From an uncultured archaeon (lineage in GTDB: Archaea; Altiarchaeota; Altiarchaeia; IMC4; SCGC-AAA252-I15): a stretch of DNA of 57,674 bases. Made by a program: the position numbers and the translations under genes. Shown piece by piece: positions 1-45,600 of this stretch. How positions within the stretch are numbered: position 1 is the stretch's first letter; every line of letters starts with the position of its first letter. The stretch covers positions 1-57,674 of the forward strand of contig CABMCB010000010.1 in NCBI GenBank assembly GCA_902384455.1, given 5' to 3'. Under the pieces are notes generated by a model. That model saw nothing but the letters and a program-made list of their open reading frames with translations, ran no database searches and was not told the DNA's origin.

Positions 1-2
1 AC

Positions 3-308
3 CTCGTAGGAGCCAACCTCGGAGGAGCCATATTGCCGTCGCCTACTCTCATCCTCCTAGCATACTGGGGCAGTGTCTCTGAGCAACTGCGTGCTGATTT
101 AATGGAGTACGATTGCTGGGTACACGGCAGCCGCGCAGCGTTTAACTACTGGGCTGAATCTGGCCGCTGCCCGTATTCTGGTCACGGCGAACAACGCGCC
201 GCAAATTTTTGCGAGAGCAGGTATATGTGGTCAAAGGGAGTTGGAAAACTTTGCAGTCCGAAGGAGTTAATGCTCCGCTTGTTTGAAGAGAAAGGCATTA
301 AGCGATAA
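3..308 (+). CDS. Pentapeptide-repeat protein, C-terminal part (5' truncated by window edge)
   Basis: The frame is open from base 3 and reads LVGANLGGAILPSP..., the A-N-L-x-G pentapeptide pattern, continuing into ORF 33..308. Confidence 0.65.
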   Translation, partial: LVGANLGGAILPSPTLILLAYWGSVSEQLRADLMEYDCWVHGSRAAFNYWAESGRCPYSGHGEQRAANFCESRYMWSKGVGKLCSPKELMLRLFEEKGIKR

Positions 309-2880: not shown

Positions 2881-2900
2881 CGTTGCGGACCACGAGATTT

Positions 2901-3314
2901 ATGAACAAAAACGAGAAGGCTCGCGCAAAGCGACTCATGGACAACTACAAGTTGACCGTGGAGCAGTACGAGGCTATATTGGAACATCAGGGCGGCGTGT
3001 GTTACGGTTGCGGTGAAGCCGAGCCGGTTAAGGGGAGACGCCTCTCTGTAGACCATGACCACGAGACCGGTTTGGTGCGCGGATTATTGTGCAGTCGCTG
3101 TAACCCAATTCTCGGGAAAATTGAGAACGCATACAAGCGTTTCGGACTGGGCAAGGTGCTGACATTGACAGTGGCGAAATTGCTGCTTCGATTAGCAAAA
3201 TATTTAAATGACCCACCAGCTAGTATCGCCCTTGGTTTCAGACATATAGGATATGCAGGGAGAACCGGCACTAAGAAGCACAGAAAGCTGCTCAAAAAGA
3301 TTAAGAAAGGGTGA
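2901..3314 (+). CDS. Endonuclease VII-like (His-Me finger) nuclease
   Basis: YEAILEHQGGVCYGC...LSVDHDHETGLVRGLLCSRCN, the signature of the T4 endonuclease VII family. Confidence 0.9.
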   Translation: MNKNEKARAKRLMDNYKLTVEQYEAILEHQGGVCYGCGEAEPVKGRRLSVDHDHETGLVRGLLCSRCNPILGKIENAYKRFGLGKVLTLTVAKLLLRLAKYLNDPPASIALGFRHIGYAGRTGTKKHRKLLKKIKKG

Positions 3315-7616: not shown

Positions 7617-7967
7617 ATGGATTATATTATCAAGTTTACCGGCGAAGTTTCTTGGGAGGGCCAAGCCAACGGCCTTCCCGACAAGATTCACGCATTTTTG
7701 GTCTTCAAGGAATACAACCGGGAGGTGTTTGACGCAGCTATTGAAACTCAAACCGGCGCGTTTCTGCGGATGGGTGCAATGTTTGTGCAAAAGGACCAAG
7801 GCCAGATTATCGAGTTGAACAAGATGCCTCAAGACCGCATCATGGTCCCGATGCGGTGGATTGTGAGTATGGGCGTAGAAGTTGTCAACATGGTCGGTGA
7901 ACTTTCGATGCCCGATGAAGCAGGTATTGAGAGATTATCGAGCGGAGAGGAGCCGGTAAAACAGTGA
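7617..7967 (+). CDS. Hypothetical protein
   Basis: 116-aa ORF tightly packed in the operon. Confidence 0.6.
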   Translation: MDYIIKFTGEVSWEGQANGLPDKIHAFLVFKEYNREVFDAAIETQTGAFLRMGAMFVQKDQGQIIELNKMPQDRIMVPMRWIVSMGVEVVNMVGELSMPDEAGIERLSSGEEPVKQ

Positions 7968-21700: not shown

Positions 21701-22459
21701 GTGATTGATAAAGTCACCATTCTAATTACTACCTTTCTTCGTAGGGGGTTGTTGCGTCGCTGCCTTCAAGGCGTCGCGACCAACCTCCCGGAGTGTGCGG
21801 TTGTAGTAACGTCGGACGACGACATTGACCCGGAGTTTCAAGGCAATGAACGGTGGAGAGAACTCCCATTTGATTCAGGGTTGACCGCAAAAAGAAACGT
21901 AGGGGTGCAATTGGTGAGTACCGAGTACACTCTGCTGGGTTGCGATGATTTTGATTTCTCTACGCCGGACTCCCGCAACGGTGTTTGTTTATTGGCTGAG
22001 GTATTAAATAATAATCCAGCGGTGGACGTGGTATGCGGTCGTCTCTTAGGCCGAGGTAATCATGCTGGTTTTCTTGAGTACATACCGGGTGAATATATTC
22101 GGGAGACCAGACTGAATATCGGGTTAACTCCTCCGTATAGTCGTGCTCCTGTGTCGGTTTGGAAAATCGACCTCGGAATAAATTTTTTCCTTGCCCGCAC
22201 ATCGGTTCTTCGGGAAGTTCCGTGGGACGAAAATATTAAACCTATCGGCGGAGAGCACGGGGACTTTTTCCTATCATTGAAAGAGGCCGGTAAGACGGTA
22301 GTATTTTTGCCGTCTGCGAACATCGAAGAGATGACCCCGTTGCCGGGAGATGTCGATGAGCGGTACGCAGCACTTCGACGGAGGGCGCAGGAAGGACATG
22401 AAATCTTTTTAAAGAAGCGCGGAATCAAGAGATACATTTCTTTCGGAGAAAAACCATGA
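21701..22459 (+). CDS. Glycosyltransferase family 2-like (GT-A fold)
   Basis: ILITTFLR, VTSDD, GLTAKRN, GCDDF, NFFLAR and EHGDFF; resembles B4GALNT-type GT-A domains. Confidence 0.85.
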   Translation: MIDKVTILITTFLRRGLLRRCLQGVATNLPECAVVVTSDDDIDPEFQGNERWRELPFDSGLTAKRNVGVQLVSTEYTLLGCDDFDFSTPDSRNGVCLLAEVLNNNPAVDVVCGRLLGRGNHAGFLEYIPGEYIRETRLNIGLTPPYSRAPVSVWKIDLGINFFLARTSVLREVPWDENIKPIGGEHGDFFLSLKEAGKTVVFLPSANIEEMTPLPGDVDERYAALRRRAQEGHEIFLKKRGIKRYISFGEKP

Positions 22460-23355
22460 TAGATTTAGTTGTGTATCATAACGCATGTCCCGACGGCTGG
22501 GCCGCTGCATACATCGCCAAGAAGAGATGGCCGGGTGCTGAACTTCTGCCGATGAATTACGGGCAAGACTTGTCTGAGCTATTCTTAAAGTCGGCTGGTA
22601 AGCACATTTTCATGGTGGACTATTCTCTTCGTACTCGGGAACTAAATGACCAACTAAATTCAGAAGCTAAGCGGTTGTGGATTTTAGACCACCACAAAAC
22701 AGCAAAGGCTGTGTTGGAGGGAGCGAACTACGCGACCTTTGATATGGAGCGCTCCGGCGCAGGCTTAGCGTGGGATTATCTTTTCGGGATAGATAGCGAT
22801 GCCCTTTGTAGAGAGGCTAACGCTCGACCTTGGTTCGTTAATTATACAGAAGACCGAGACCTCTGGCGTAATAAGCTGCCGCGCAGCGAAGAGGTGAATG
22901 CATACCTGATTAGCGCAGAACGTACAACGGAAAAGTGGGACGAGATTGCAAAGATGTCTCTGGATGATGCCGTTCATGCGGGTAGCGCAGCAAGGCAGTA
23001 TATCGAATATTACGTTCGCGGCGTGGGTGTAGAGACTCAAGCGGGAGTGTATGTGTTTTCTGGCCGCAACTACCACACGGGCGTCGTGAATATGCCGTAT
23101 GTGGGGGTTAGTGATGCGCTGCACGCGGTCGTGAAGGCTGGCTTCGACATCGGTATGGCGTGGTTTGAGCGCGGTGACGGAGTGGTTCAGTTCTCTCTTC
23201 GCTCGGAGGGCGACACGGATGTGTCGGAGATTGCGAAATCTCAAGGCGGCGGAGGGCATAAGCATGCCGCAGGATACCAGCTACCACTAACAGCGGCAAG
23301 AGCCCACATTGACTGGATACTAGGGAGAACAAACCATGTTACTCGTTGCTGTTAA
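22456..23355 (+). CDS. DHH/DHHA1 phosphoesterase
   Basis: YHNACPDG, MVDYS, LDHHKT, EDRDLW, SLRS and GGGHKHAAG motifs. Confidence 0.9.
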   Translation: MIDLVVYHNACPDGWAAAYIAKKRWPGAELLPMNYGQDLSELFLKSAGKHIFMVDYSLRTRELNDQLNSEAKRLWILDHHKTAKAVLEGANYATFDMERSGAGLAWDYLFGIDSDALCREANARPWFVNYTEDRDLWRNKLPRSEEVNAYLISAERTTEKWDEIAKMSLDDAVHAGSAARQYIEYYVRGVGVETQAGVYVFSGRNYHTGVVNMPYVGVSDALHAVVKAGFDIGMAWFERGDGVVQFSLRSEGDTDVSEIAKSQGGGGHKHAAGYQLPLTAARAHIDWILGRTNHVTRCC

Positions 23356-24016
23356 ATCTTGCCTTCGAGATTTAGACCGAGGTTGTCACGATGTAATTCG
23401 TGCAACATGGGGTAAAGACTTGCCAAGGAGTGAATCAATGGTCCGCTTCTTCGTAGGGATGGAGGTGGATGGAAAAACCTCCCGAAACTTTAAAAGCGAC
23501 GAGGTCGTTCTCAGCGCACCGGATGACTACGCAGGTCTCCCATTTAAAACTCGCGAGATTACGCGCTGGGCCACTACAAAGGCGGTTTCTCACGCTTTTC
23601 TTTGTGATACCGATACCTTCGTGAAGCCCAAGAAACTTTTAGAGTGTGGTTTTGAGCAAGCCGACTACATGGGCAAGATAAGTAAGCCGATTGGAGAGAG
23701 ATTTTCTTACGAGGACGTAGACCGCGCCGGACAAAAACATGTATATGACCGCGCTTTTCCTTGGGCTAGCGGCGGTTTCGGCTACTTTCTATCTAAAGGT
23801 GCTTGCTTCGAGGTCTCCGACCAATATCCGGCGGGGATGTGGGCGGAAGATTTTTGGGTTGGCCAAGTAATGGGAGAGCAAGCAGCGCAGGGCTATGCTG
23901 TAATCGAGGATGTGCCCGCCGGTACTTACTCGTTTCACTTTCCTCAAGGGAAATACGGCTCGCAGTATGACCCGAAGTTCAAGTGGATGGAGCAAATGTA
24001 CGAGGAGAATAAGTGA
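23336..24016 (+). CDS. GT31-like (Fringe/beta-1,3-galactosyltransferase-like) glycosyltransferase
   Basis: IRATWG, DDYAGLPFKT, CDTDTFV, ASGGFGYFLS and AEDFWVG motifs. Confidence 0.8.
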   Translation: MLLVAVKSCLRDLDRGCHDVIRATWGKDLPRSESMVRFFVGMEVDGKTSRNFKSDEVVLSAPDDYAGLPFKTREITRWATTKAVSHAFLCDTDTFVKPKKLLECGFEQADYMGKISKPIGERFSYEDVDRAGQKHVYDRAFPWASGGFGYFLSKGACFEVSDQYPAGMWAEDFWVGQVMGEQAAQGYAVIEDVPAGTYSFHFPQGKYGSQYDPKFKWMEQMYEENK

Positions 24017-24816
24017 TTACGACAATTTTAAGAGGCGGAATGGGTAATCAAATGTTTCAATACGCTATGGGTTTAGATACCGCCCGTCGTCTCGGAACCA
24101 AACTGGCATTGGACACCACGCATCTTCGCTCTAACTGGAAGCGCCAGTACAGCCTCGGATTATTCAATATCAATGACCCCCAAGTAGAAGGAAGTGAGCC
24201 CACCGTGTCGGAGGCATGCCTGCCCTACGACTCCTCGCTCGTGAAGCGTATCAAGGACGGCGACGTGCTTCTCGGGTACTGGCAAAGTGAGAAGTATTTT
24301 AAAGACTTAGACACCCGCATCATGCTTCGCCACAGATTTTTTCCGAAGGGCAAGATACCGGCAGCAGCAGAGGATTTTTCTAATGAAATTCTTGCGACAG
24401 GCGAGCGCGGCGTTATGATTGGTGTTCGTCGAGGAGATTATCTCGTGAGTTCGTATCACGGCGTAATGACCTCAGAATATTATTTAAGAGGGCTCTCGGC
24501 TCTCGGCGTACAAAAGCCGATTCTCTTCGTATTCTCAGATGACCCGGTATGGTGTCGTCGGGTACTGGCAATGGAGTTGCCGCATCCGATACATATCTTT
24601 CAAGGAGATGTATCGGTCCCAAATCACTTAGGGCGAGAAGACGTTGACCTCTGGTTGATGAGCCAGTGCTCAAATTTCGTAATCGGAAACAGCACATTTC
24701 ACTGGTGGGGCGCGTGGCTTTCTACTCGTTTTAATGTGGTTGCACCGAAGAACTGGTTTGCATCGAGCAAGGAAGACCCGAGAGATATTTGCCCCGAACA
24801 CTGGCTGAGAGTATGA
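24013..24816 (+). CDS. GT11 alpha-1,2-fucosyltransferase
   Basis: GGMGNQMFQYA, GYWQSEKYF, VRRGDY, FSDD and NSTFHWWGAWL motifs. Confidence 0.92.
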   Translation: MITTILRGGMGNQMFQYAMGLDTARRLGTKLALDTTHLRSNWKRQYSLGLFNINDPQVEGSEPTVSEACLPYDSSLVKRIKDGDVLLGYWQSEKYFKDLDTRIMLRHRFFPKGKIPAAAEDFSNEILATGERGVMIGVRRGDYLVSSYHGVMTSEYYLRGLSALGVQKPILFVFSDDPVWCRRVLAMELPHPIHIFQGDVSVPNHLGREDVDLWLMSQCSNFVIGNSTFHWWGAWLSTRFNVVAPKNWFASSKEDPRDICPEHWLRV

Positions 24817-25511
24817 AGATTGTACTAATCACTATTGCTGACGGCGCTGCATATTGGGATTACGCCCGCAACATGTTTGCGTCTGCGAAGGAGTATTTCC
24901 CTCGACACGACCAGATTACATTCACTGAGCGCCCATTTAAAGCAACCAGCACATTTCTTCGCGGGAACGAATACCATCTACAAATTGCTTCAAGAGGATA
25001 CCCGGGCGCAACGCTTTACCGCTACCACGCATTTTTACAATACGAGCACTGGCTCAATAAATACGACTACGTTTTCTACTGCGATGCCGACATGGAGTTC
25101 GTTGCTCCAGTAGGCGACATCTTCGCGCCGCTTGTTGCTGTGCTGCATCCGGGTTATCTCGGAACACGCGGTACGCCGGAGGACCGCCCACAATCGGCGG
25201 CATACTGTACTAATAACGGTGCATACTACGCCGGTGGCTTTCAAGGCGGGGAGTCAGTGGCATACTTAAGTGCGGCAAAAGATATGGCTGGCAAAATCAC
25301 AGAAGATGCGCTTCGCCAAATCACGGCGGTGTGGCATGATGAGTCGCACTGGAATCATTACCTTGCTAACCTTCCCACTAATGACCGTCTGTTAGCGCTC
25401 GGTCCTAGCTATTGCTTTCCAGAAGGCTCCAAACAAGCATACCCGCCTATTTTGATTGCATTGGATAAACGTAAGCGCGGTAATCATCCGAGGTTTCCCA
25501 GTGCGTGTTAG
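24813..25511 (+). CDS. GT6 alpha-1,3-Gal/GalNAc transferase (ABO-type)
   Basis: TLYRY, YDYVFYCDADM, LHPG, YYAGGFQGG and AVWHDESHWNHY motifs. Confidence 0.92.
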   Translation: MKIVLITIADGAAYWDYARNMFASAKEYFPRHDQITFTERPFKATSTFLRGNEYHLQIASRGYPGATLYRYHAFLQYEHWLNKYDYVFYCDADMEFVAPVGDIFAPLVAVLHPGYLGTRGTPEDRPQSAAYCTNNGAYYAGGFQGGESVAYLSAAKDMAGKITEDALRQITAVWHDESHWNHYLANLPTNDRLLALGPSYCFPEGSKQAYPPILIALDKRKRGNHPRFPSAC

Positions 25512-26109
25512 CATCATCATTCTGTATGTAGCGTCGGGACCGCTGCTGGACGAGGCTGTTAAAAGCGCGGAAAACCAGACGCTGCCGCCGTACGAGGTTA
25601 TCGCGGAGCACGACCCCGGCAGAACGGGGATAGCTGCGACCCGTAATCGGGCACTGGCGAAAGCCACGGGGGACGCGTTTGTGCCGCTCGATTCAGATGA
25701 TTGGGTCGAGCCGACATTTTTGGAAAAGACTGTGCCGCTCCTTGTCGGAGCCGTGGGCATAGTTTCTACTGCGTTTGAATACCACGGGATTCACGACGGA
25801 TTAATCATGGCCGCATATTCTAGAACATTGAGAGAACAGTTATGCTCAAACAATATTTGCGGCTGTTCGTTGGTTGACCGTCGTGCTTATGATGCGGCGG
25901 GGCCGTACGACGGCTTCATCCCGGGCTGGGAGGATTGGGATATGTGGATTCGAATTTTGAAGGCAGGTTGGACCCACGAGGTAGTGAACGAGCCGCTGTT
26001 CCATTACCGTCTCACGAACACAGGAATGAATGCGTACGCATCTGCTCGGAAAGCAGAGAATCGTGCCAAGATGAGGGAGAAGCATGGAGAGGGAGAGTAT
26101 TACGCATGA
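25501..26109 (+). CDS. Glycosyltransferase family 2
   Basis: VSIII, GIAATRN, LDSDD, WEDWDMWIR and LFHYR motifs. Confidence 0.9.
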   Translation: MRVSIIILYVASGPLLDEAVKSAENQTLPPYEVIAEHDPGRTGIAATRNRALAKATGDAFVPLDSDDWVEPTFLEKTVPLLVGAVGIVSTAFEYHGIHDGLIMAAYSRTLREQLCSNNICGCSLVDRRAYDAAGPYDGFIPGWEDWDMWIRILKAGWTHEVVNEPLFHYRLTNTGMNAYASARKAENRAKMREKHGEGEYYA

Positions 26110-26576
26110 GAGCCGTAGAGCGCGAGAAATATCCAAAACTCTACAAGAAACACCTTGCTTTCGGGCGTAGCAAGAGAGGTCGTAGACTGAATAAACGGGC
26201 CGTTAAAAAGTACGTGAACAGTGAAAAAGGAAAAGAAGTCCGAAGCAAATATCAGACCGGGGCGGGAGCAGAAATTCACAAAATTTCAGTGAAGAAATAC
26301 AATAGTTCGAATCACGGCCAAATCAACCGCCGTTTGTGGAATAAGGGTTTATCTAAAACAGAGAAAGAGAAGGCTAGAAAAGCATGGGACCAATTTGATG
26401 GGCGCTGTCAGTGCTGTGGGCGACGTAGAATAACTAAACGCGGATGGCATCTGGACCACAAGGGAAAGAAATTTCGAGGAATACTTTGTCACCATTGTAA
26501 CATTGCCCTCGGGTTCCTCAATGATAGTGTTGAGAGATGCAACCAAGTAATCTCGTATCTGGAGAAAACAAAATGA
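26106..26576 (+). CDS. Endonuclease VII-like HNH nuclease (second copy)
   Basis: CQCCG...WHLDH...RGILCHHCNIALG with a basic N-terminus. Confidence 0.85.
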   Translation: MRAVEREKYPKLYKKHLAFGRSKRGRRLNKRAVKKYVNSEKGKEVRSKYQTGAGAEIHKISVKKYNSSNHGQINRRLWNKGLSKTEKEKARKAWDQFDGRCQCCGRRRITKRGWHLDHKGKKFRGILCHHCNIALGFLNDSVERCNQVISYLEKTK

Positions 26577-29063: not shown

Positions 29064-29584
29064 ATATACGTTATGTAAACGGACGATTCGAGGCGGAGTT
29101 CTCCGATTTTAGCGGGGACATGGCCGCTGTCAAGGCTGCCGGGTGGAAGTGTGACGGCCCTCCCGGCTGGACATGGCATTCCCGTACTGCCGCCGGTGTT
29201 GTTCGACTTCGTGAGAAGCATCGTCCTGCTAGCGGACTTACTATCACGCCCGAGGCTAAAGCAGCGTTTGCTTCTCTTCTCAAATGCGAGGAGCAAAATG
29301 CGGAGGTAAAAAAGCAGCTACAAAAAGCCCGCAAAGAAACTGAGAAGAAGCGCATATCAGAAGACCCCGCCAACGAAATCCCCATCCCTGAGAAAGGCTA
29401 CATCGGCAAGGAAGACCTCAGCCCATCAAAGGTCAGCTACACCCCGTACGCTCCCCCTCCCAAACCTGCCACGTTGTGCGTTTACTGCGGGGACCCTGTT
29501 TATGCCCTGTTTGACCGGACGGAGCCTTACCCATATTGCTTGTGGTGCGAAAAAACAGTACTTGACAAATGCGACGGTTTTTGA
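29060..29584 (+). CDS. Hypothetical protein with C-terminal zinc finger
   Basis: CVYC...CLWC. Confidence 0.65.
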   Translation: MNIRYVNGRFEAEFSDFSGDMAAVKAAGWKCDGPPGWTWHSRTAAGVVRLREKHRPASGLTITPEAKAAFASLLKCEEQNAEVKKQLQKARKETEKKRISEDPANEIPIPEKGYIGKEDLSPSKVSYTPYAPPPKPATLCVYCGDPVYALFDRTEPYPYCLWCEKTVLDKCDGF

Positions 29585-29590
29585 TACTAC
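29562..29590 (+). promoter_or_regulatory. Possible sigma70-like promoter for the Ig-like cassette
   Basis: TTGACA, 17-nt spacer ending TGA, then TACTAC (weak -10). Confidence 0.5.
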
Positions 29591-29606
29591 TTTAATAGGG
29601 GGATTT

Positions 29607-29930
29607 ATGAGGCTGCTATTTGTTCTTTTCTTAACGCTCGCGTTGTGCGGCTGTGCATCGTCTCCGCCGCCGCCCTCCGTGTTGCAAATAACTACTCAGA
29701 CCCTCTCGCCCGCCTTCACTGGAAAGACTTATACCCAGCAACTGACCGCCTCCGGCGGGACAGCCCCGTATATTTGGAGCGCTACGAACCTCCCGAAAGG
29801 CTTAGCGCTTTCTTCGTCCGGTGTTCTGTCCGGTGTTCCCGAGGTTCCGGGTCAATATCAGTTAACGATTCAGGTCGTGGATTCAAAACTCGCGGCAGTA
29901 AACTTGAAAATTGATTGGAGAAAATCATGA
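29607..29930 (+). CDS. Lipoprotein with one putative Ig (He_PIG-like) domain
   Basis: Lipobox LALCG-C; LTASGGTAPY, LPKGLALSSSGVLSGVP. Confidence 0.8.
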   Translation: MRLLFVLFLTLALCGCASSPPPPSVLQITTQTLSPAFTGKTYTQQLTASGGTAPYIWSATNLPKGLALSSSGVLSGVPEVPGQYQLTIQVVDSKLAAVNLKIDWRKS

Positions 29931-30592
29931 AATTGAAAAACGTTTTAGGGGTTCTCTTGTTTTTGTTTTCTGCGTTTTCCGCCTTCGGGCAGGACAAAGC
30001 GGTGAAACAATTGACGCTCGTGGTTAATCCGGGTGTTGTCTCAATTACGCCCGCCGTCGTTCCGGGGGGAATGGTCGGCTTAGCGTACACGACCACACTC
30101 ACCGCCTCCGGCGGACTGGGGCCGTACACGTTTAGCTTGACCACCGGCACGCTTCCTTCCGGTCTAGCATTAACCGCCGCTGGTGTTATCTCCGGTACCC
30201 CAACGGTTGCCGGTGCGAGCACATTTGCGGTGCAGGTAGCGGACTCCGAAGTTCCAGCTATTACGGCGTCGCAGTCTTATACAATCACTGTCGTCCCTAC
30301 GCTCGCTATTACGACTACCGGCTTGCCAGCGGCTAACATCGGCGTGGCTTATACAACCTCGATTGCCGCTACCGGGGGCGTTGCTCCATACACATTTGCC
30401 GTGACCGCCGGTTCTCTACCGGCTGGTTTGACACTCACCCCGTCCGGTACCCTCGCTGGAACCCCAACCACCGCTGGGTCTTTCACATTCACCGTCACCG
30501 TCACCGACTCCGCAACGAATATCGTGCTTTTGGAGATTCGAGGCAAGGTAATCGTGGCCGGGTTGACGAAGGGAGAAGTCGGGAAGTCATGA
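29927..30592 (+). CDS. Secreted protein with two putative Ig (He_PIG-like) domains
   Basis: Signal peptide ending AFG/Q; two repeats of (A/T)xGGxxPYTF...GxLPxGLxL...GxxxGTPTxAG. Confidence 0.85.
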   Translation: MKLKNVLGVLLFLFSAFSAFGQDKAVKQLTLVVNPGVVSITPAVVPGGMVGLAYTTTLTASGGLGPYTFSLTTGTLPSGLALTAAGVISGTPTVAGASTFAVQVADSEVPAITASQSYTITVVPTLAITTTGLPAANIGVAYTTSIAATGGVAPYTFAVTAGSLPAGLTLTPSGTLAGTPTTAGSFTFTVTVTDSATNIVLLEIRGKVIVAGLTKGEVGKS

Positions 30593-30996
30593 AGAGACTG
30601 ATTTTTGCACTCCTGCTGGCGGCACTCTCCGCCAGCGGGGGTGCCTCCCAAGACAAAACGTCCAGACCGCTGGTTGTTCTGGTCGGACACACGGTCACCA
30701 TGAGTTGGACGTATACAAACCCGGCTCTTTACGACGTTGACCATTACAACTTATATTCTTCTTCTATCAGCGGTGGCCCATATACGATTGTTGGAACTTC
30801 AACTACCATGCAGTATGCTGACTTAACTACGATAGCTGGTCATACCTACTACTACGTGGTAACCGCCGTCGCCGGTCCCAGAACAGACTGTTCCTTTCTT
30901 GTGGTTCCTACTCCGTGCCCCCCGACTCAGCAATGTTATTGCGGGGAGAGCGCGTACTCACCCCAGTCTGTTCCGGTAACAATACCCACACCGTAA
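30589..30996 (+). CDS. Secreted fibronectin type III-like protein
   Basis: Signal peptide; HTVTMSW, YNLY, GGPY, TYYYVVTAV and GESAYS motifs. Confidence 0.8.
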   Translation: MKRLIFALLLAALSASGGASQDKTSRPLVVLVGHTVTMSWTYTNPALYDVDHYNLYSSSISGGPYTIVGTSTTMQYADLTTIAGHTYYYVVTAVAGPRTDCSFLVVPTPCPPTQQCYCGESAYSPQSVPVTIPTP

Positions 30997-33258: not shown

Positions 33259-33410
33259 ATCATGTCATGCCGTACCCGTTCCGAAAGGACGGCACCCTGA
33301 CCGTGACCAGCGAGCAAATTTTGGCTCGGCTTGCGACTATCGCGAATAAGAAGGCCGAGATAGAAACAGCTTTTGAGCAGTTCAAGAAGCAATTTGAGGG
33401 AAAGGCGTGA
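33255..33410 (+). CDS. Small hypothetical protein
   Basis: GGAGG RBS, TTG start, GTGA overlap with the next gene. Confidence 0.5.
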   Translation: MNHVMPYPFRKDGTLTVTSEQILARLATIANKKAEIETAFEQFKKQFEGKA

Positions 33411-33883
33411 GTATAAAAACAAAGATTCTGCTCACGATTGCCTCAGTAGTTCTGTGCTCGTGGTTGTTTGGATGTGGGGCGCAGAAAGTAAGTACGCGGC
33501 AGCCGGAACTCTCTGACGGTTCCGATACCAACCTTACTTTTCTCTCGGTTGCACACAGCGCTTACAACGAGGAATATTTTGGCGGCAAGTTAAGAGCGCA
33601 CATCGGTTTAGACGAGACGCAGTACATGGCGTCCACGATATGTGAAGACGACGGCTCCGACTGTCGCATTAACTTTAATCTTAGATACACCGTTGCCCCT
33701 CGGGTTGCGCTCATCACAATGCTACACGAAATGTGCCACGAAAAAACTTGGATGCAGGACAAAGACATGCTAGGTAAGCAAATCGGGCACGGGTATCACT
33801 GGCGTTCTTGTATGGTTCTCTTGGATGCGGAAGGCGCGTTTCGAAAAATTATCATTGACAACTACTCAGAGCAAGTGAGATAA
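33407..33883 (+). CDS. SprT-like zinc metalloprotease with lipoprotein signal
   Basis: YNEEYFGGKL, TMLHEMCHE and HGYHWR motifs; N-terminal hydrophobic segment ending LFG-C. Confidence 0.75.
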   Translation: MSIKTKILLTIASVVLCSWLFGCGAQKVSTRQPELSDGSDTNLTFLSVAHSAYNEEYFGGKLRAHIGLDETQYMASTICEDDGSDCRINFNLRYTVAPRVALITMLHEMCHEKTWMQDKDMLGKQIGHGYHWRSCMVLLDAEGAFRKIIIDNYSEQVR

Positions 33884-36527: not shown

Positions 36528-37412
36528 ATGGAGACACGCATGAACTTTCGAGGCCAAGCGGAGAAGTATCTGCTTGAAATTGCCAACCGCAAACGTAACC
36601 CGGCGCGAGCCGGTACGCTGCACGTTTATCGTTCTCTTCTCGATGCCCGAATCCTGCCCTTCATCGGAGGGATGGAATTGGGGGGCATCGGCAATAAGAC
36701 CGCCAAGATGCTCGCGGGTCGTCTTGCAGAGGCCCGTCTGAGCCCCGCCACAATCAACTTGGCGGTCACTGTTGTCAAGCAGGTTCTCGCTTCTGTAGTG
36801 GACGAGAATGGAAACCAGCTATATCCTCGTACTTGGAACTCGGAGTTTATCGACGCGCCCCGGGTTGATAAAAAGGCTCAAAGGACCCCTGTAATGGGTC
36901 AGGAAGGGCTCTCCCGGTCAATTTCCGAGGCTTTCGGAGAGATTAAGGTCCTCGTAGCCCTTTTAGCGGGAACAGGGCTCAGAATCGGCGAGGTGCTCGC
37001 AATCGGGGTTCCGGGGGGTAACGTTTGGGACCCAGCCACGAGTACCATCCAAATAACCTCCACGATGGTCCGTGGAAGGCTACAGCAGGCCCCTAAGACC
37101 GCCGCCGGAGTCCGTACGGTTGACCTTCACCCCGACATCAATAATGCGCTGGCGAGCTTGCCGGACGGCAAATTTGCCCGCTCCGAGGATACATACCGCC
37201 GCCAAATCGAGAAACTCGGCATCCCCGGCTTTCACTCTCTTCGTCGTGCCCGTATTACCCATTTACAGAACGAGAACGTCCCGGCCATGCTCATCAAGTT
37301 TTGGGCTGGCCATGCGGCTGGCGACATCACCGAGCGTTATACAAAAATCGGCAGTGAAATTTCAGCGAGAAAGGACTGGTCTGAAAAGGCTGGATTAGGT
37401 TTCGCATTATGA
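36528..37412 (+). CDS. int: Tyrosine recombinase/integrase
   Basis: GTGLRIGE (R), APKT (K), HSLRR (HxxR), WAGH (H) and TERY (Y). Confidence 0.92.
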   Translation: METRMNFRGQAEKYLLEIANRKRNPARAGTLHVYRSLLDARILPFIGGMELGGIGNKTAKMLAGRLAEARLSPATINLAVTVVKQVLASVVDENGNQLYPRTWNSEFIDAPRVDKKAQRTPVMGQEGLSRSISEAFGEIKVLVALLAGTGLRIGEVLAIGVPGGNVWDPATSTIQITSTMVRGRLQQAPKTAAGVRTVDLHPDINNALASLPDGKFARSEDTYRRQIEKLGIPGFHSLRRARITHLQNENVPAMLIKFWAGHAAGDITERYTKIGSEISARKDWSEKAGLGFAL

Positions 37413-38526: not shown

Positions 38527-39288
38527 TCATGGAAGGAACGGCTCAAAGTCTTGTGCATACCGGTCGGATGAGCGAACCGAAGACAGAATCTCTTTAGCAC
38601 GAGCGACGCGCTGATGAATATTACCCCCCTTGTTAGCATAAATGTCCAATATTCCGTACCAAGAAAAGCCTTGGTGAGCGCACACCGGTGTTTCTGGGAA
38701 TGACCACCTCCCGTCCATCTCTTGAATAACTCGACGAATCAGGCCGTCGTCCAACGTCGAGGTCCAATCTGCCGGTGGGAACCGTTTACAGTATTCTATT
38801 GTGTTCGAAAAGTACTCGTCGTTGATATGCGGAGCCAACGCGTCCAGCAACGGGCGTCGCAAACATGACCCGGGATTGGTATACCACGGGAACGACTCAA
38901 ATCGGCGCATTTTCCTTCCGCACGAGGCGGCCACTCCCTCCTGAGATTGATGCCACTCAAAAAATTGCGGGTACACCATCACATCCTCCTCCACCAGAAA
39001 CACCTCGTCCGCAAACTGAGCGGCATGTTTGATTGAGTTGAGGATGTTCCAGCAACCGGACGGCGCTTGGATGTGCGGCGGGGCCAAAAACAAAAAAGCC
39101 TCCGGGAAATATAAGTCGCGAACGACCTCTACTTCGCGGAGGCGTGACTCCGATACGGTGTCCACGTAAATGTGGACTTCGAGATTACTTGGTTTTCTTG
39201 CGGCGCTTAACTTTTCCAACGCTAGGGCTAGGAGTTCCGGCCTGTGCGCTGTCGGAATCGCTACCACCGATGTTCGGCTTCGGTCCAC
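38527..39288 (-). CDS. GT-A fold glycosyltransferase at the end of the virion arm
   Basis: VVAIPTAHRPELL, HIYVD, FLVEEDV and LDDGLI motifs; likely GTG start at 39288 after GGAG. Confidence 0.7.
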   Translation of the reverse strand: MDRSRTSVVAIPTAHRPELLALALEKLSAARKPSNLEVHIYVDTVSESRLREVEVVRDLYFPEAFLFLAPPHIQAPSGCWNILNSIKHAAQFADEVFLVEEDVMVYPQFFEWHQSQEGVAASCGRKMRRFESFPWYTNPGSCLRRPLLDALAPHINDEYFSNTIEYCKRFPPADWTSTLDDGLIRRVIQEMDGRWSFPETPVCAHQGFSWYGILDIYANKGGNIHQRVARAKEILSSVRSSDRYAQDFEPFLP

Positions 39289-39611: not shown

Positions 39612-42600
39612 TTACTCCCCCTTCAAGAAGTCGAGAAATTGCTGCGCCTTTACCTTCCGTCCCGCTGCCATCGCTGGCTTGGTTCGGTCGAGGCTATTTC
39701 TGACATCTTGGGCATATTGTGACACAAGCTGGTGCGTTTTGTCAAGAGTCTGTTTTCCGGCAGCATAATCACGCCAGATTTGGTCTATTGCCTTGACATG
39801 GACACCGGCGGCGTTAACCTCGGCAGCCTTGTCAATCTTAGCGTTCCCTGTCTTCTTAATCGAAGCCGAGGCCAGCTTCAACGTGACCGGGAACATGTTA
39901 CGAACCTCTTCCCACACGATGGATTGAAGCTGGCGAGGCTGTATCCCGAGTTGAGCCGCAGCCTTTCGATAAGCCTCGGCATAAAGCGGATACATGCCCT
40001 TAACTCCGGTTTCTGCGCTACCGATGCGTCCGAAGTTGTTAAGTACCTCGTCGGATTTACCTCCGAGAGCACGCACCAAGCCTGCGGCGACTGCATGGGT
40101 GTCGACGGTGACGTGGCCCGCCGGATTATTTGGGTCCAGTATGTTGTTGTAGAAATTGCGAACCTTATGGCTACCGCCCAAATGATTCGAGATATTTTCT
40201 CTTGAGCCGTTTTCCAGAACGGATACCGCGTTTCCGATTTCGTTTAAACTACCCCACGCAATACCGGCGGGGCCTTTTGCGGCCATGACGGTTTCTTTTT
40301 CATCGCCGGTTGCCGGGTCGATGTGCTGATACGAGCGCGGGTTATGCGCTTCATCATAAATACGAATCCACGCAGCCTTCTCAATCGGGTCGTGAAGTTC
40401 ATTCAACGATTTTCCGCGAATATTGTCAAGGATGGCGGTGAGACCGGGGTTCAAGGTCTTGCCTTCCTCGTCCACGTCCGTGAGAGACTTTGCCTTGGCC
40501 TCCATCTCTGGCGTCATAACAATGTCAGCCTTCGTGTGGTAAATGTTGGCGACACGCTTTGCGAGCCCGACATTCATATCCCAATCCTTTTGGGGCGACA
40601 TCGCGGCGATTACCGCGCTCATTTGTTCGGGAGTGCGGCCATACTTATCCGCTAAGTCTTGCGCCAGTTTGTTGGCAGACTCGTACCACTTTGCATTAGC
40701 ATCCCGACGTTCTTGCGGTACTTGGTTGTATAGCTTCTTAAGGTTTACGGAGACGTGGTCAACAAACTTGTCCATGACCTTTTGTGGGTCCTTCAAGTTC
40801 GCCACACCTTTGACTCCCGGGATTTCCTTAATCTTATCGGCCATACGCTGGGCTAATGTCTTATTGTCGCGCAGCGCTGTTGCGGAGTTAATGGCCTCCC
40901 GGTTGATTACAAGCGGTTCTCCTTCCAGATGATTCTCTGTCGCGTCCTTAGAAGTCGGGACACGTGTCGAGATAAGCTGCTGCTTCTCCGGGTTGAACTC
41001 CTCGTTAGAGCGGCCCGATAAGTCGGCCAAGCGTGCTTCCGTCGTGTAGTCCGGGAACGAAGTCTGCTCACCCTTCCCGCCGGTCATAATCTCTTTCTGG
41101 TTTTTAACATCCCAGATGGACTTCTGGTCGAGGTTCTTTGCAGCGGTTTCCGCGTCCTCTTGATTTGAGAAGCGACTGCTGATGTTCAACTCGTTGCCGT
41201 ATCCGCCTACGTGAAGTTCCGGGTGCTGGGCCAACAACGCCTTGTTATCCTTCGCGAAGGATGCGATGTCCTCAGCCGTAGCCGGGTGGTCTAACACGCG
41301 GCGCTTCTCCGGGAACATCTCGTTCATGTAGCCCTCGGTCGGGACTTCTCCCGTCTCAGGGTTAACCGTGAATCCGCCTTCTTTATTGGACTCCTCTGCT
41401 TGCTGTGCCCACCTCGGGGCCTTCACGGCGTTTGCTTTCTCCGCCGTATATAGATGCTTCAACGCGGGAGCCGCTTTTATGAGGTCAAATTTGTGTTCTC
41501 GAAGAGACGTTACCGGAATCTCGACATCGCCTTTAGGAGTTCCTATTATAACGTCCGTTAAAGGAACCCCATACACGTTACCCGCAGCAAAATCTCTTTG
41601 GTCTTTTCGCAAATCCGATTCTATCGCTTGAAGAGTTGATGAGTTTAAGGAACCTACGTCGTAAGCGCCTTGACCGGCTTTTCGTATCCAGCCTTTATTT
41701 ATCAGGTCCTCAAGAGCATTGTCAGCTTTAGAGTACATTTGAGCATCAGCTTCGTGATAGCCGTGCTCTAGGTCCTTAAACTCGCCTTCCGAGGTAATCC
41801 ACCCCGCAGGCGCGTTTTTATTTGCATTAGCTTGCTCCATCTGGCTTGGGTGCGCCTTAATGTCTCGCAGCATTTGGTCAACGTCACCGCCGCGAGGAAA
41901 CGACTTTTGCTTCGAAAGCTGGTCCTTGGTATCGGCTTTTACGTCCGCACGCTCAATATTAAGATTTCCGTTTCGGCTTAATCCCTCCGCTGTTGCGCGG
42001 CGTATTGAGTCAAGCTGTTCGAGGCTTACACCACCAGCGGGTACGGAGAACGACAGATTTTCTCCCGAGCGATTATTGTAGCCGTGAACGCGAACAGCGC
42101 CGGACTTGTTCACAAACTCCGGGCGATTATCCCAACCATTTTTCTCGTTCGAGTTTCCCCCTCCGCTTTCTGCAATCGCGTCGCCGTGCTGTGTTCCTTC
42201 CAAGTGGACGAACTGGCCTTCCGGGGTAATAAACGAGTGCTGGTTTTTTACCGCTGCGGCGTTGTCTGTCACGCCGTATCTTTCCTTGATTTTATCAAGA
42301 ACATCCTTGGCTTTGGTCTTTGAAAGATTGGATTGCTCAAATTGGGAAGCACGCGCAGCATTGGCCTCATCGCCCTTGCGGTATGCCTCCCGACTCGCGT
42401 CCAACTTAGCCTTCACTGTATCAGGTGTAATTGTTTCGTTCGGCCCGAATGCCAGCGTGGTGCCGGATGTTGGGTCATGAAACATGCGGACTGCCCAAGC
42501 CTCGTTGCCGCCGAGTCGTCCACCGGGGATGCCGCCAGCCTTACGGATGATGTCATCCTCGCCTTCGTGGCCGGTGGTGTGTTCCGGCGGGGTCCTTACT

Positions 42601-45600
42601 TGGTTGGAAACGCTTTCTCCAATTCCGCCCTCACCTCGGCCTTGTGTTCCTCCGGTGCCGACTGCGCCCCCTTGGTCGCCTCCTCCACCAACTTGTCCGT
42701 TGTTAGGTTCTCCGGTACCTGATACTGGCTCATTTTGTGCTCCTAGTCTTCTTTTAACTTCCGCCGCCATCGCATTCAAACGTTCCGGCGAATAGTGATA
42801 CTGGCGGGACAACCCCTTTTCACGGGTACCCGCATTCTGATTTAGTATATCCGAAATCTCCGGCCTTGTCAAGTGGGTCTTGGCGTCGTCAATGGCCTCA
42901 TTGAACATCCTACTAGCTTCCGGGAAGGAAACACCGTGCGCCATGATAAGACCGATGGCTTGGTGTGCATCCGAGCCCGAGAGCCTCGAATTGTTGTTTC
43001 GGTTCGCTTCTCTCGGAGTGTCAGAAAATGCCTCATCGGCAGCGATACCTCCTGCCAGAGCGCGAAGAATCGTCGGCATGTGTTCCGATTTAATAACCAA
43101 AGCACCCCGCATCGCAGACCGCCACAGGTCTGCTAAGTTTGCTGTGCTCCATCTCACCGCAGCATTCACCGTATTCGGCACATCGGGATGAGTGTGACGA
43201 AGAATGCCCGTTTGAACCAGTCCCTCGTTCATGCCGACTAAGGCGTGTCCTAACTCGTGCCTCATGGTCCCGAGAAGAAGATTCTCCGGTTCTAGACCGC
43301 GTGTTCTTGCAACGCGAGAATCAGGCGTACTTAGGTGGCTGCCGGTCGGCACAGAATATGGAATCGGTCCCGGCTCGGCTCCTTGATTAACAGAGAAGCC
43401 CTTCGCGTCCGGCTGCTCCTTCTTAGCAATCTCAATCGCTTCTTGCATTGAGTGCGCTGAGACTTTATCCTGTCTCGGTCCCTCCGCTGTATCGTATTCG
43501 ACGTTGAACTCACGGGGCAATGCATGCTCTTCTACTTTCTTTTTCAGGTTTGACTGCTCTATATTTTTACGCTCTTTGTCAACCACGTCGTGAAGATAGT
43601 TCGGGGCTTCCGCAGCCGGAGTTTTCTCCTCGTGGGTGGGCTCACTCGCGGTCTCCTTACGAGACTCAGCGAGACCTTGCATTACTCCGTGACTGAGATT
43701 TGACTGCTCTTTTCCTTCATCAGTCTTTCGTGACGCTTCGGATTGAACTCCTTGTCCGCTTGCAGACTTATCTTTTCCAGTTCTTCCGGCTTCTTCGACT
43801 CCGGCTTGTGAGGTACCATTCGCCCCTTCTCCTTCACCATCTCCATCGGGTATTGATGTTTCATTTCGGTATGCTCCCTTCAATTTTTTAACGTACTCGG
43901 CCATTCGACCGGCACTGATGTGGTAGTTCTTGTGGAGACCGACTTCTCTCAGGCCCTTGTTCGCTTCCACGAGCGCTAACGCCTCTGGGTTCGAAACATG
44001 CTCCTTGGCACGCTCATACAGCGCATCTATCACGTTATCGAGCGTGGTGCCGGACGTGATGCCGCCCTCGTCGCGAAGAATCTCGCGTGCGCGACGGAAA
44101 TCATCCCGGGCTGCAACATTGTCTCCCTTCTTAATGCCGTTGTGAACTTCATCGAAAGCCGGACCCGACAGTATTGCTGTTACGCGTTGCTTCAAGCCAT
44201 CGAAGCCTTCCTTCGCACCGGTAATGTCGGCCTGTACCGCTGCCGCAGCACCGGCTCTTTGAGCGTCCGGGTGGTGTTCCGAAATCATCTGGAACGGGTC
44301 CAATCCTTCCGCGACGTAGCCCATAATATGGCCGTGTTCGTGGCCGTGGATTTGGTCGGTGGTGTGAGATGAGACACCGGTGATGTCTGCCGCCGGGTCC
44401 AATGCTCGTAATACAGGACCGTGCGCAACGCGCTCATCCGCGCCTGCGGCGTTTGCTTGCTCTGCGGCCTTAGCTGCTCGTGCAGCCTCTTCCTTCGCGA
44501 TTGCGGCCTTATACTTCTCCTGATATTTCAAGAGGTCCTTCTGATACTTATCGTTCGCAGCCTTGTTGGCCTTCTCGACTTGCTCATTCTCAATCGAGTG
44601 CTGCTCGTTAATCTTGGACTGTAAGTCCATCGCCTTGTCGATTTGAGCCTGCGAGTACTTGCCGCCCTTGTTCGCGATGTCCTGCTTCATATCCGCAACT
44701 TCGTTGCTAAACTTTTGCAAATTGTCTTTGTATGGAGTGTCGCCGAGGAACTCCCCGTAGTACGACGCGAGTGCGCCGTTTAAACGGTGGTTCACTTCCG
44801 GCGCAGTTACCGGCGTCGGTGGTTGCGGTACCGGCGGAAGACCCTTCGGAGCCGGTGGTTGCGGAGGCGGCGGAACAGCGCCTTGTTGTGGGGGAACGTC
44901 GGTTGGAGTAGTTGCTTGGGCTCCCGGCTCGCGTCCCGCCAGATTCTGGGCACGCTCCAAATTGCCTTGGGTATCCTTCGCGTTATCTTCGTATACGCGA
45001 CGCCATAGCTCCGCGCCGCCAGCGATTGCACCGATTGGCCCGGTCAAGAAGTGGCCGAGTAATCCACCTACGATGCCAGCGGTCTTGCCGTATTCGAATA
45101 GCTTGCCGAGAACGGTGCTCTTAGCCTTCAAATCCATCTTATCCAGCGCGGCTTGTGCATTACGCAAGCCGTCACGGATGTCGATTAGGTCAGCTTCCTT
45201 CTGACGTGCTTCCTTGACGCCACCGATGCCTTTGGCATCATACGATTCATCAATGGTCTCGCGCATGAAGTTGTTGGCTTCATTTGCCGCAGCGCGGTAC
45301 GCATTCGCTGGAAGATTTGTTTTGTCGTCGGTGAAGCTGGCCTTACCCTCTTCGTTCAATCCTTGGCGGGCGTTCTCAGCTTCATAAAGATTTGGAGCGC
45401 GGCGGACAGTCAAGCCGTCACCGTGGTCCTCTGTCTGCATAACGCGCTCGACAACCTTGTCCGCAGCTTCTCTCGCAACTTCACTGCCGTAACGGCCTCG
45501 GTTGTCGTCGAAAAACTTATCGAGACGCTCACGAAGACGGTCCTCGAAATTCGGGACCACCGGCTCCGTGGAGTCACGGGTTGCGCCTGCCTTTTCTAAT

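Follow-up and report, generated by a model that had tools for sequence, protein, structure and literature searches.

The window examined here is a stretch of 57,674 nucleotides (nt) that makes up the entire contig C10 of a 2.41-Mb bin (G000), and its subject is a group of glycosyltransferase (GT) genes at positions 21701-26109 of the plus strand. Six genes are tightly packed in this interval, five encoding GTs and one a DHH/DHHA1 phosphoesterase. The original prediction had placed five GT genes in this interval, as profile and structure matches bear out, and had overlooked the phosphoesterase gene between the first and the second of them. The locus is a variable accessory glycosylation island of an uncultured phage lineage with genomes of about 100 kb, and a sixth GT-like gene lies apart from it on the opposite strand. 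The features are:

21701-22459, plus strand: gtX, predicted GT-A enzyme, GT12-like, 252 amino acids (aa); phmmer and Foldseek matches to B4GALNT1; DDF and GGEH motifs
22456-23355, plus strand: DHH/DHHA1 phosphoesterase, 299 aa; PF02272 (E 5e-8), phrog_4771 (E 5e-69)
23336-24016, plus strand: GT31, 226 aa; PF01762 (E 2.1e-8); IRATWG, CDTDT and AEDFWVG motifs
24013-24816, plus strand: GT11 fucosyltransferase, 267 aa; PF01531 (E 1.4e-19), phrog_2644 (E 4e-47)
24813-25511, plus strand: GT6, alpha-1,3-GalNAc/Gal-transferase type, 232 aa; PF03414 (E 2.6e-19); other possible start TTG at 24789
25501-26109, plus strand: GT2, 202 aa; PF00535 (E 1.7e-12); DSDD motif; other possible start TTG at 25456
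38527-39288, minus strand: sixth GT-A-like gene (GNT-I/MGAT2/GT2-like), closing the minus-strand structural block after the gene of a 2,329-aa structural protein

Operon structure and enzyme families

The genes of the operon overlap throughout. The gtX and phosphoesterase genes share a 4-nt ATGA, the phosphoesterase and GT31 genes share 20 nt, and the GT31 and GT11 genes share a 4-nt GTGA. GT11 and GT6 are joined by an ATGA overlap provided that GT6 begins at ATG 24813, GT6 and GT2 overlap by 11 nt provided that GT2 begins at GTG 25501, and GT2 ends in an ATGA overlap with an endonuclease VII gene that begins at 26106. All six genes of the operon, the five GTs and the phosphoesterase, are translationally coupled, and the overlaps, predicted originally for the central three genes, extend to every operon junction. 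No transmembrane segment was detected in the operon proteins by a crude hydropathy scan (best 19-residue Kyte-Doolittle mean at most 1.47), the exception being a value of 1.92 within the doubtful N-terminal extension of GT2. A Pfam scan of 61 open reading frames (ORFs) of the window and 31 of contig C38, which belongs to the same phage (see below), gave no flippase, polymerase, priming phosphoglycosyltransferase or nucleotide-sugar gene. The lack of transmembrane segments and that of flippase and nucleotide-sugar genes had both been predicted. The combination of priming transferase, flippase and polymerase that marks a Wzx-Wzy or O-antigen cluster is not found in the locus. Promoter and terminator signals between 19 and 30 kb were near the level of shuffled sequence (11 against 9.5 promoters, 15 against 10.8 terminators), so that no transcription unit can be drawn from them.

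The family calls for GT31, GT11 and GT6 made earlier agree with Pfam matches above the cut-offs; in NCBIfam no GT of the phage scored above cut-off. The GT6 protein reaches 69.6 bits against PF03414 (cut-off 25) and 124.9 bits against NF041524 of NCBIfam (below the cut-off of 250). It aligns end to end with BoGT6a (4ayj, E 4e-26); human GTA (E 1.3e-17) and human GTB also align. Its motifs DAD, HPG, YYAGGFQGG and WHDESHW are unchanged in the four aligned lineage sequences; DAD, which corresponds to the metal-binding DXD of clades 1 and 2, stands opposite NAN of BoGT6a, and WHDESHW opposite WHDESLI, which holds the catalytic Glu192. A passage of PMC3516806 divides GT6 into three clades, one of them a "minimal" DXD clade typified by the enzymes of cyanophage P-SSM2 and Parachlamydia (PaGT6), and describes this clade as lacking the C-terminal membrane-binding domain of bacterial GT6 enzymes of the lipopolysaccharide (LPS) type. 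According to the same passage, PaGT6, the one tested member of the clade, transfers GalNAc onto the H trisaccharide or 2'-fucosyllactose, requires metal and refuses LacNAc, and the preference of BoGT6a for UDP-GalNAc is set by the residues AGGL. By its sequence the window GT6 fits the minimal DXD clade: it shares with P-SSM2 GT6 and PaGT6 a length of about 230 aa, the DXD motif, the HDESH region and the absence of a membrane-binding C-terminal domain, whereas it is only 35-43% identical to them and is part of a coupled operon with GT31, GT11, GT2 and GT12-like genes. It carries AGGF at the site of AGGL; because of this and of its apparent membership of the PaGT6-type clade, GalNAc (A-type) is the more likely donor than Gal (B-type). 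The closest cellular GT6 genes (39-43% identity) occur in Chlamydiota, Planctomycetota and Verrucomicrobiota.

The GT11 protein scores 70.9 bits against PF01531 (cut-off 23.9) over residues 117-264 and matches phrog_2644 over its full length (residues 8-266); it contains an N-terminal GGxGNQxFQ block, GYWQSEKYF and NSxFxWWGAWL. GT31 scores 34.6 bits against PF01762 (cut-off 23). The motifs of this family are RxxWG, DxD and EDxxxG, and all three are present; R22, T24, D93-T94, D172 and G176 are invariant in six of six sequences. Neither GT11 nor GT31 has a solved structure related by sequence. A structure search with the GT31 model against representative structures returned GT31 enzymes in all top five places (B3GalT6, Z 11.2; B3GalT5, 11.0; CHSY3, 10.1; B3GNT2, 9.2; Manic Fringe, 9.0), a ranking counted as support only, since the model is poor (pLDDT 58). 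The gene is predicted to encode a transferase of the beta-1,3-Gal/GlcNAc/GalNAc type.

The gtX protein has no Pfam or PHROG match of its own. Phmmer relates residues 5-191 to the human beta-1,4-GalNAc-transferase B4GALNT1 (PDB 9h6j, E 5e-10), and Foldseek places its model (pLDDT 86.7) closest to 9h6l, also B4GALNT1 (TM-score 0.75, E 1.6e-16, 27% identity), followed by polypeptide GalNAc-transferases (TM-score about 0.65). B4GALNT1 is an enzyme which we take to belong to CAZy family GT12. The DDF (DXD) and GGEH motifs are invariant in five of five aligned homologues, and two of four homologues (L004, C25) barely attain the Pfam cut-off for GT2. By sequence and model gtX is a GT-A enzyme and appears GT12-like, and its earlier label of GT2 is therefore only roughly right. 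The GT2 protein at the end of the operon scores 48 bits against PF00535 (cut-off 23.3), with only profile positions 61-129 matched and DSDD present; its PDB matches are 6p61 and 9jma (about 5e-6), and its NCBIfam matches all fall under the cut-offs.

The island across the lineage and beyond

The lineage was sampled through 12 IMG/VR loci anchored on a conserved upstream PD-(D/E)XK gene (contigs of 61-119 kb); 11 whole IMG/VR records were taken for comparison, and 13 genomes entered the gene-presence counts. Contig C59 of the bin (99.9 kb, with a 127-bp terminal overlap and collinear with the window) is a complete sister phage, and the idea that it is host DNA with a host copy of the cluster was rejected on these grounds. 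The variable slot lies between ORF 20999 and the phosphoesterase/endolysin genes, with the following content:

Window: gtX-DHH-GT31-GT11-GT6-GT2
G006, G007: gtX-DHH-x-GT31-GT6-GT11-cytidylyltransferase-x-x-GT2
G011, G008: gtX-(DHH)-GT31-GT6-GT2-GT11-x-RmlD-like-Polysacc_synt_2
G009: gtX-GT31-GT6-GT11-GT2
C59: GT31-GT6-GT11-x-RmlD-like-Polysacc_synt_2-x-GT31b-Gmd-Fcl-gtX
G010: gtX-GT31-GT11 ... Gmd
G002: gtX-DHH-GT31
G001: DHH and a GT31-like gene only
G003, G004, G005: no GT

The gene order had been likened to that of ABO(H) antigen synthesis. This does not hold for the lineage: GT6 precedes GT11 in six of the seven genomes with GT31, GT6 and GT11, and GT31-GT11-GT6 occurs in the window only. 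The C59 island contains an RmlD-like reductase, a Polysacc_synt_2 dehydratase and the GDP-fucose genes Gmd and Fcl, which give independent support for a step that uses GDP-fucose; the G010 island also has Gmd. The DHH gene is kept in GT-less genomes (L118, L119, L121) and is missing from the GT-bearing C59 and G011. Its persistence in relatives without GTs led to its rejection as a member of the glycan pathway, of which it is probably not a part. A 304-aa family without Pfam match (C59/L023, 13743-14657) is absent from the window and flanks GT6 in 18 of 80 cellular and three of 19 viral loci; the family could represent an enzyme of the same pathways that has so far gone unrecognised.

The sixth GT gene has no Pfam, PHROG or NCBIfam match and no solved relative by sequence (best E 0.14). 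In the ESM Atlas it falls among mostly viral clusters, some with members that carry GNT-I, MGAT2 or GT2 domains, and its structural neighbours are GT-A enzymes; this placement is a lead, not proof. The gene is present in eight of nine gtX-bearing genomes (window, C59, G002, G006, G007, G009, G010, G011) and in none of the four without gtX. The gtX-bearing G008, in which it was not found, is 77% complete; the four genomes that lack it along with gtX (G001, G003, G004 and G005) are 95-100% complete. A screen of 1,037 protein clusters in the 13 genomes, filtered for presence in at least six of nine gtX-positive and none of four gtX-negative genomes, was passed by the island genes, the sixth GT and a 116-aa ORF (7617-7967). 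This ORF was lost under looser clustering and rejected as an island-linked gene; the sixth GT stayed. The screen, which served also to look for the acceptor by gene presence and absence, gave no structural protein that tracks the island. Both gtX and the sixth GT are missing from a close relative, G001, and present in a distant one, G010, so that the co-variation is not purely clade-wise. Among deposited phages (50,697 records) the only relatives of the sixth GT are six Streptomyces phage GTs (25-27% identity); in Satis, the one inspected, this gene and another GT gene immediately precede those for the tail chaperone and the tape-measure protein.

In the same deposited records GT6 has matches in 71 (64 of them cyanophages) and GT11 in 103, mostly cyanophages and often 1-2 kb from GT6, in keeping with the earlier statement that phage GT6 and GT11 are known from cyanomyoviruses. 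Matches to gtX number 182, all in Salinibacter phages, and no GT31 homologue was found. GT31 occurs elsewhere in 118 metagenomic protein clusters, most with PF01762 and many on contigs of 63-117 kb. Of 19 viral and 80 cellular GT6 loci, 11 and 50 respectively have GT11 in their flanks; for GT31 the numbers are only four and three, the three cellular cases all being Planctomycetota contigs. A 2025 soil-virome study counts phage GT6 and GT11 among auxiliary genes, with no biochemistry in the text seen (excerpt of PMC12016548), and our literature search found no paper on phage GT31 or on a phage-made A/B/H glycan.

Genome and host of the phage

The window contains genes for a Prim-Pol primase, a split family-A polymerase, a UvrD-type helicase, a T5 A1-like protein, an N-acetylmuramidase-type endolysin and a tyrosine recombinase, and large structural genes on the minus strand; no capsid, portal or terminase gene was found in it. 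Contig C38 (36.7 kb) supplies these three: its capsid gene is broken up by a LAGLIDADG ORF, its portal is of the SU10 type, and a terminase gene is also present. It is collinear with positions 32.6-55 kb of C59. The first 30 bases of the window repeat a 15-nt tandem unit that also ends C38, and therefore the assembly is taken to break there within one phage; the repeat (window 1-308 and the end of C38) has, read by eye, the look of a pentapeptide-repeat protein. C10 and C38 are one phage genome of about 94 kb on two contigs. With relatives of 75-119 kb, the description of the genome as small is not upheld. Deposited phages include a single structural relative, Tunturiibacter phage Tunturi_3 (97.6 kb), and a DNA-level search of the island and the polymerase region against the 50,697 records gave no match.

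The phage had also been called temperate. The only basis for this is the tyrosine recombinase (36528-37412), which belongs to the core genes of the lineage, with 12 of 13 genomes carrying it, and for which a role in lysogeny and one in replication or resolution are both possible. No prophage of the lineage was found in the 80 cellular GT6 loci or in 401 Planctomycetota genomes, six of which gave weak partial matches to the nuclease domain only, and three lineage records have direct terminal repeats. As to the host, no tRNA was found, and a look for short, spacer-like matches between the phage and the other contigs of the bin gave none; lineage genes gave no match in the 80 cellular GT6 loci or in five metagenome-assembled genomes of the PVC group. 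The A1-like protein has relatives in 1,134 phage records, those listed coming from bacterial hosts. Taken as sequence evidence, the muramidase, the A1-like protein and the relatives of the GTs all point to a bacterial host, and the phage contigs of the bin were probably binned by composition (mis-binning).

Two or more related phages, each complete or nearly so, are present in the bin, and they bear bacterial hallmarks in the form of a muramidase endolysin and a T5 A1-like protein. A third phage-like contig, C25, carries at about 17.4-21 kb (L028, L029) three GT31-like genes, a gtX homologue and a sugar O-methyltransferase-like gene, adjoining a DNA polymerase III beta clamp and an SNF2 helicase. 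The major capsid gene (C38, about 4.3-6.4 kb, L124) is matched in three pieces around the LAGLIDADG endonuclease ORF, a pattern that points to an intron or intein; the capsid genes of G003, G006 and G010 diverge abruptly close to the 3' end. The family-A DNA polymerase consists of two overlapping ORFs (11509-12714 and 12711-13838) and is in two pieces in most lineage genomes. An endonuclease VII/HNH-type family has at least nine members in the window phage and one to eight per relative, with copies at 2883-3314, at 26106-26576, which abuts the GT operon, and several on C38. Signal peptides and lipoboxes, read by eye, mark a set of exported proteins at 29502-30996 and 33407-33883: a He_PIG Ig-domain lipoprotein, a He_PIG secreted protein, a third secreted protein and an SprT-like metalloprotease lipoprotein. 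The He_PIG proteins are uncorrelated with the GT island, being found in the window and in one GT-less relative. The 2,329-aa protein (39612-46601, minus strand) has two HExxH motifs and a DUF7178 region, and only its C-terminal 450 or so residues are conserved in C59.

Predicted glycan, acceptor and significance

From the families, motifs, operon structure and distribution described above, a scheme of donors, linkages, step sequence and acceptor is proposed. The six soluble cytoplasmic GTs would draw on nucleotide sugars of the host (GDP-Fuc, UDP-Gal/GalNAc/GlcNAc), and relatives would produce GDP-Fuc of their own. GT31 would lay down a beta-linked Gal, GT11 would add alpha-1,2-fucose to give an H-like structure, and the DXD-type GT6 would add alpha-1,3-GalNAc to give an A-like structure, with priming or core sugars supplied by the GT12-like, GT2 and late GNT-I-like enzymes. 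The most likely acceptor would be structural proteins of the phage, which are assembled in the cytoplasm; virion glycosylation of this kind is seen in chloroviruses and mycobacteriophages. That a fucosylated A-antigen-like glycan is made in the cytoplasm, with virion proteins as its most likely acceptor, is put forward tentatively, at a probability of roughly 0.4. Coupling of GT11 to GT6 is plausible, as the two genes co-occur in flanks and PaGT6 needs a fucosylated acceptor; for the supply of fucose, the sister phage carries Gmd and Fcl. A virion acceptor is favoured because the lack of transmembrane segments, flippase, polymerase and priming transferase suits cytoplasmic protein glycosylation and not export, and because the sixth GT ends the structural block, co-varies with the island and has an actinophage relative beside tail genes.

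There are precedents for such an acceptor. In chloroviruses, soluble and early-expressed viral GTs together with viral GMD/GMER glycosylate the capsid protein in the cytoplasm, and some chloroviruses without GMD/GMER still fucosylate (passages of PMC5408694); the presence of Gmd and Fcl in C59 and their absence from the window mirrors this difference between strains. PBCV-1 resembles the present lineage in its virus-encoded soluble cytoplasmic GTs and viral GDP-fucose genes, found here in relatives (PMC5408694, in part). It differs as a eukaryotic giant virus with other GT families, and its acceptor Vp54 is proven, whereas that of the window phage is proposed. Mycobacteriophage GTs decorate capsid and tail-tube subunits (Freeman et al. 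2023, as cited in passages of PMC12619734 and PMC12801897). The likeness to these phages is that one GT of the window phage lies in the structural block and has actinophage GTs as relatives, near tail genes in Satis; the unlikeness is that most of its GTs lie outside the structural module and that the C-terminal capsid extension linked to GTs in mycobacteriophages was not found in the capsid comparison of the lineage.

That missing extension is one of several points that weigh against a virion acceptor or the proposed product. Genomes with and without GTs share a major capsid protein at 70-89% identity. The co-variation of the sixth GT rests on 13 related genomes and perhaps on two or three independent events. 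The distance of this gene from the tyrosine recombinase region is about 1.1 kb, and serotype-conversion genes of temperate phages classically lie near the recombinase; its position, near the recombinase as well as in the structural block, is therefore ambiguous. The poor model of GT31 counts here too, and GT31 members can transfer GlcNAc or GalNAc instead of Gal. At the HxRRxD site, the first Arg of which is reported to be critical in GT11 (PMC4202792), the window enzyme reads GVRRGD(Y) where three aligned relatives read HVRRGD(Y), with both Arg and the Asp retained. At least one alpha-1,3-fucosyltransferase falls inside GT11 (PMC4202792). All prokaryotic GT6 and GT11 enzymes tested biochemically act on LPS-type glycans (PMC4202792; PMC3516806, as far as excerpted).

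A close alternative, somewhat less likely, is that the host envelope is remodelled. On the cytoplasmic side of the inner membrane, the soluble GTs would lengthen a lipid-linked glycan of the host, such as lipid A-core of the lipooligosaccharide type, an undecaprenyl-pyrophosphate-linked O-unit, or an exopolysaccharide or S-layer glycan precursor, and host exporters would display the product. The outcome would be superinfection exclusion, less adsorption of progeny to debris or, if the phage lysogenises, serotype conversion. Characterised prokaryotic GT6/GT11 pairs do build blood-group O-antigens, as with WbnI and WbwK of E. coli O86 (PMC4202792) and with BoGT6a (passage of PMC3516806), and the O86 B pathway has the same succession of a GT11 alpha-2-fucosyltransferase and a GT6 alpha-3-transferase on a beta-Gal acceptor. 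The bacterial beta-3-Gal-transferases listed in PMC4202792 are GT2, whereas that of the window would be GT31, and the GT6 enzymes of these bacterial systems have NXN where the window enzyme has DXD. Their O-antigen clusters also include genes for export and polymerisation, of which the scans of the window and C38 found none. The closest cellular GT6 homologues adjoin GT2, GT11, Gmd and Fcl in what are probably surface-polysaccharide loci; the phage, moreover, has genes for exported Ig-domain proteins and lipoproteins, its sixth GT is close to the recombinase gene, and the island differs between close relatives in the manner of an O-antigen locus. Against this, the Pfam scans of the window and C38 gave no flippase, polymerase, ligase or priming transferase, and host exporters would have to accept a whole new oligosaccharide from five to ten enzymes. 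The GT6 clade, as described in the passage of PMC3516806, lacks the membrane-binding domain of LPS-type GT6, and the negative outcome of the prophage searches and the direct terminal repeats of three lineage records also count against this alternative.

It is less probable still that the family names mislead, there being no single H-to-A pathway and the enzymes using other donors or linkages, or separate acceptors, with no A/B/H-like epitope as a result. A GT31, GT2 or GT12-like fold leaves donor and linkage unspecified, and the alpha-1,3-fucosyltransferase within GT11 and the non-canonical GVRRGD would suit this explanation. So would the varying content of the island, with GT6 missing in G010 and G002 and GT2 in C59, and the low identity to characterised enzymes (GT6 to BoGT6a at only E 4e-26, GT11 with no solved relative). 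On the other side stand the intact donor and catalytic motifs of GT6, of GalNAc type, the strong adjacency of GT11 and GT6 across many unrelated genomes, the GDP-fucose genes of the sister island and the translational coupling of the operon.

DNA, named earlier as a possible acceptor, is very improbable. In this case a modified base of the phage DNA, such as 5-hydroxymethylcytosine or 5-hydroxymethyluracil, would be glycosylated to evade restriction. Phage GT-A and GT-B enzymes do place diverse glycans on 5-hydroxymethylcytosine, through multi-GT loci that include GT-A folds (Pyle et al., bioRxiv 10.1101/2023.12.21.572611, in the portion available), and the island sits in a plus-strand block with replication and nucleotide-metabolism genes, but proven DNA GTs cluster, in that portion, with C5-methyltransferase and 5mYOX/TET or a ThyS-type hydroxymethylase. 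Neither PF00303 nor PF00145 had a match anywhere in the bin, window, C38 and C59 included, with positive controls; the ORF Pfam scans of window and C38 gave no such partner gene; and PF12851 had no match in the bin contigs either, with a silent control that makes this result uninformative. We know of no GT6, GT11 or GT31 enzyme that acts on DNA.

A virion acceptor also admits a bolder form, which is improbable as it stands: that a blood-group-type glycan is built wholly in the cytoplasm by "animal-type" families (GT12-like, GT31, GT11, GT6, GNT-I-like) and that the island diversifies from one close relative to another as an antigenic or adhesion coat. If true, a phage virion would for the first time be found to bear a glycan of blood-group type.

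Phage GT clusters with GT6 and GT11 are already known. Those of cyanomyoviruses (P-SSM2, ACG-2014f, S-SCSM2R) likewise have GT11 and GT6 close together, with sugar-nucleotide enzymes and unproven function; unlike the window phage, these are T4-like phages of 170-250 kb, and GT31 has no homologue in deposited phages. New here are the GT31 and GT12-like members, from families known mainly from animals, the linked late GT, the natural GT-less relatives and a specific predicted product. Phage GT clusters are common, and their products and acceptors are almost never known. The lineage offers a compact soluble set of six enzymes with a specific predicted A/H-like fucosylated glycan, and a useful test case, with natural "knock-out" relatives that lack the island and a sister genome with its own GDP-fucose pathway. 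If the product is on virions, phage virion glycosylation would reach beyond actinophages and phages would be a source of blood-group-like antigens; if it is on the host, the cell surface would be converted by a new route that needs no flippase. Either way, glycan synthesis could gain these small, soluble enzymes as tools.

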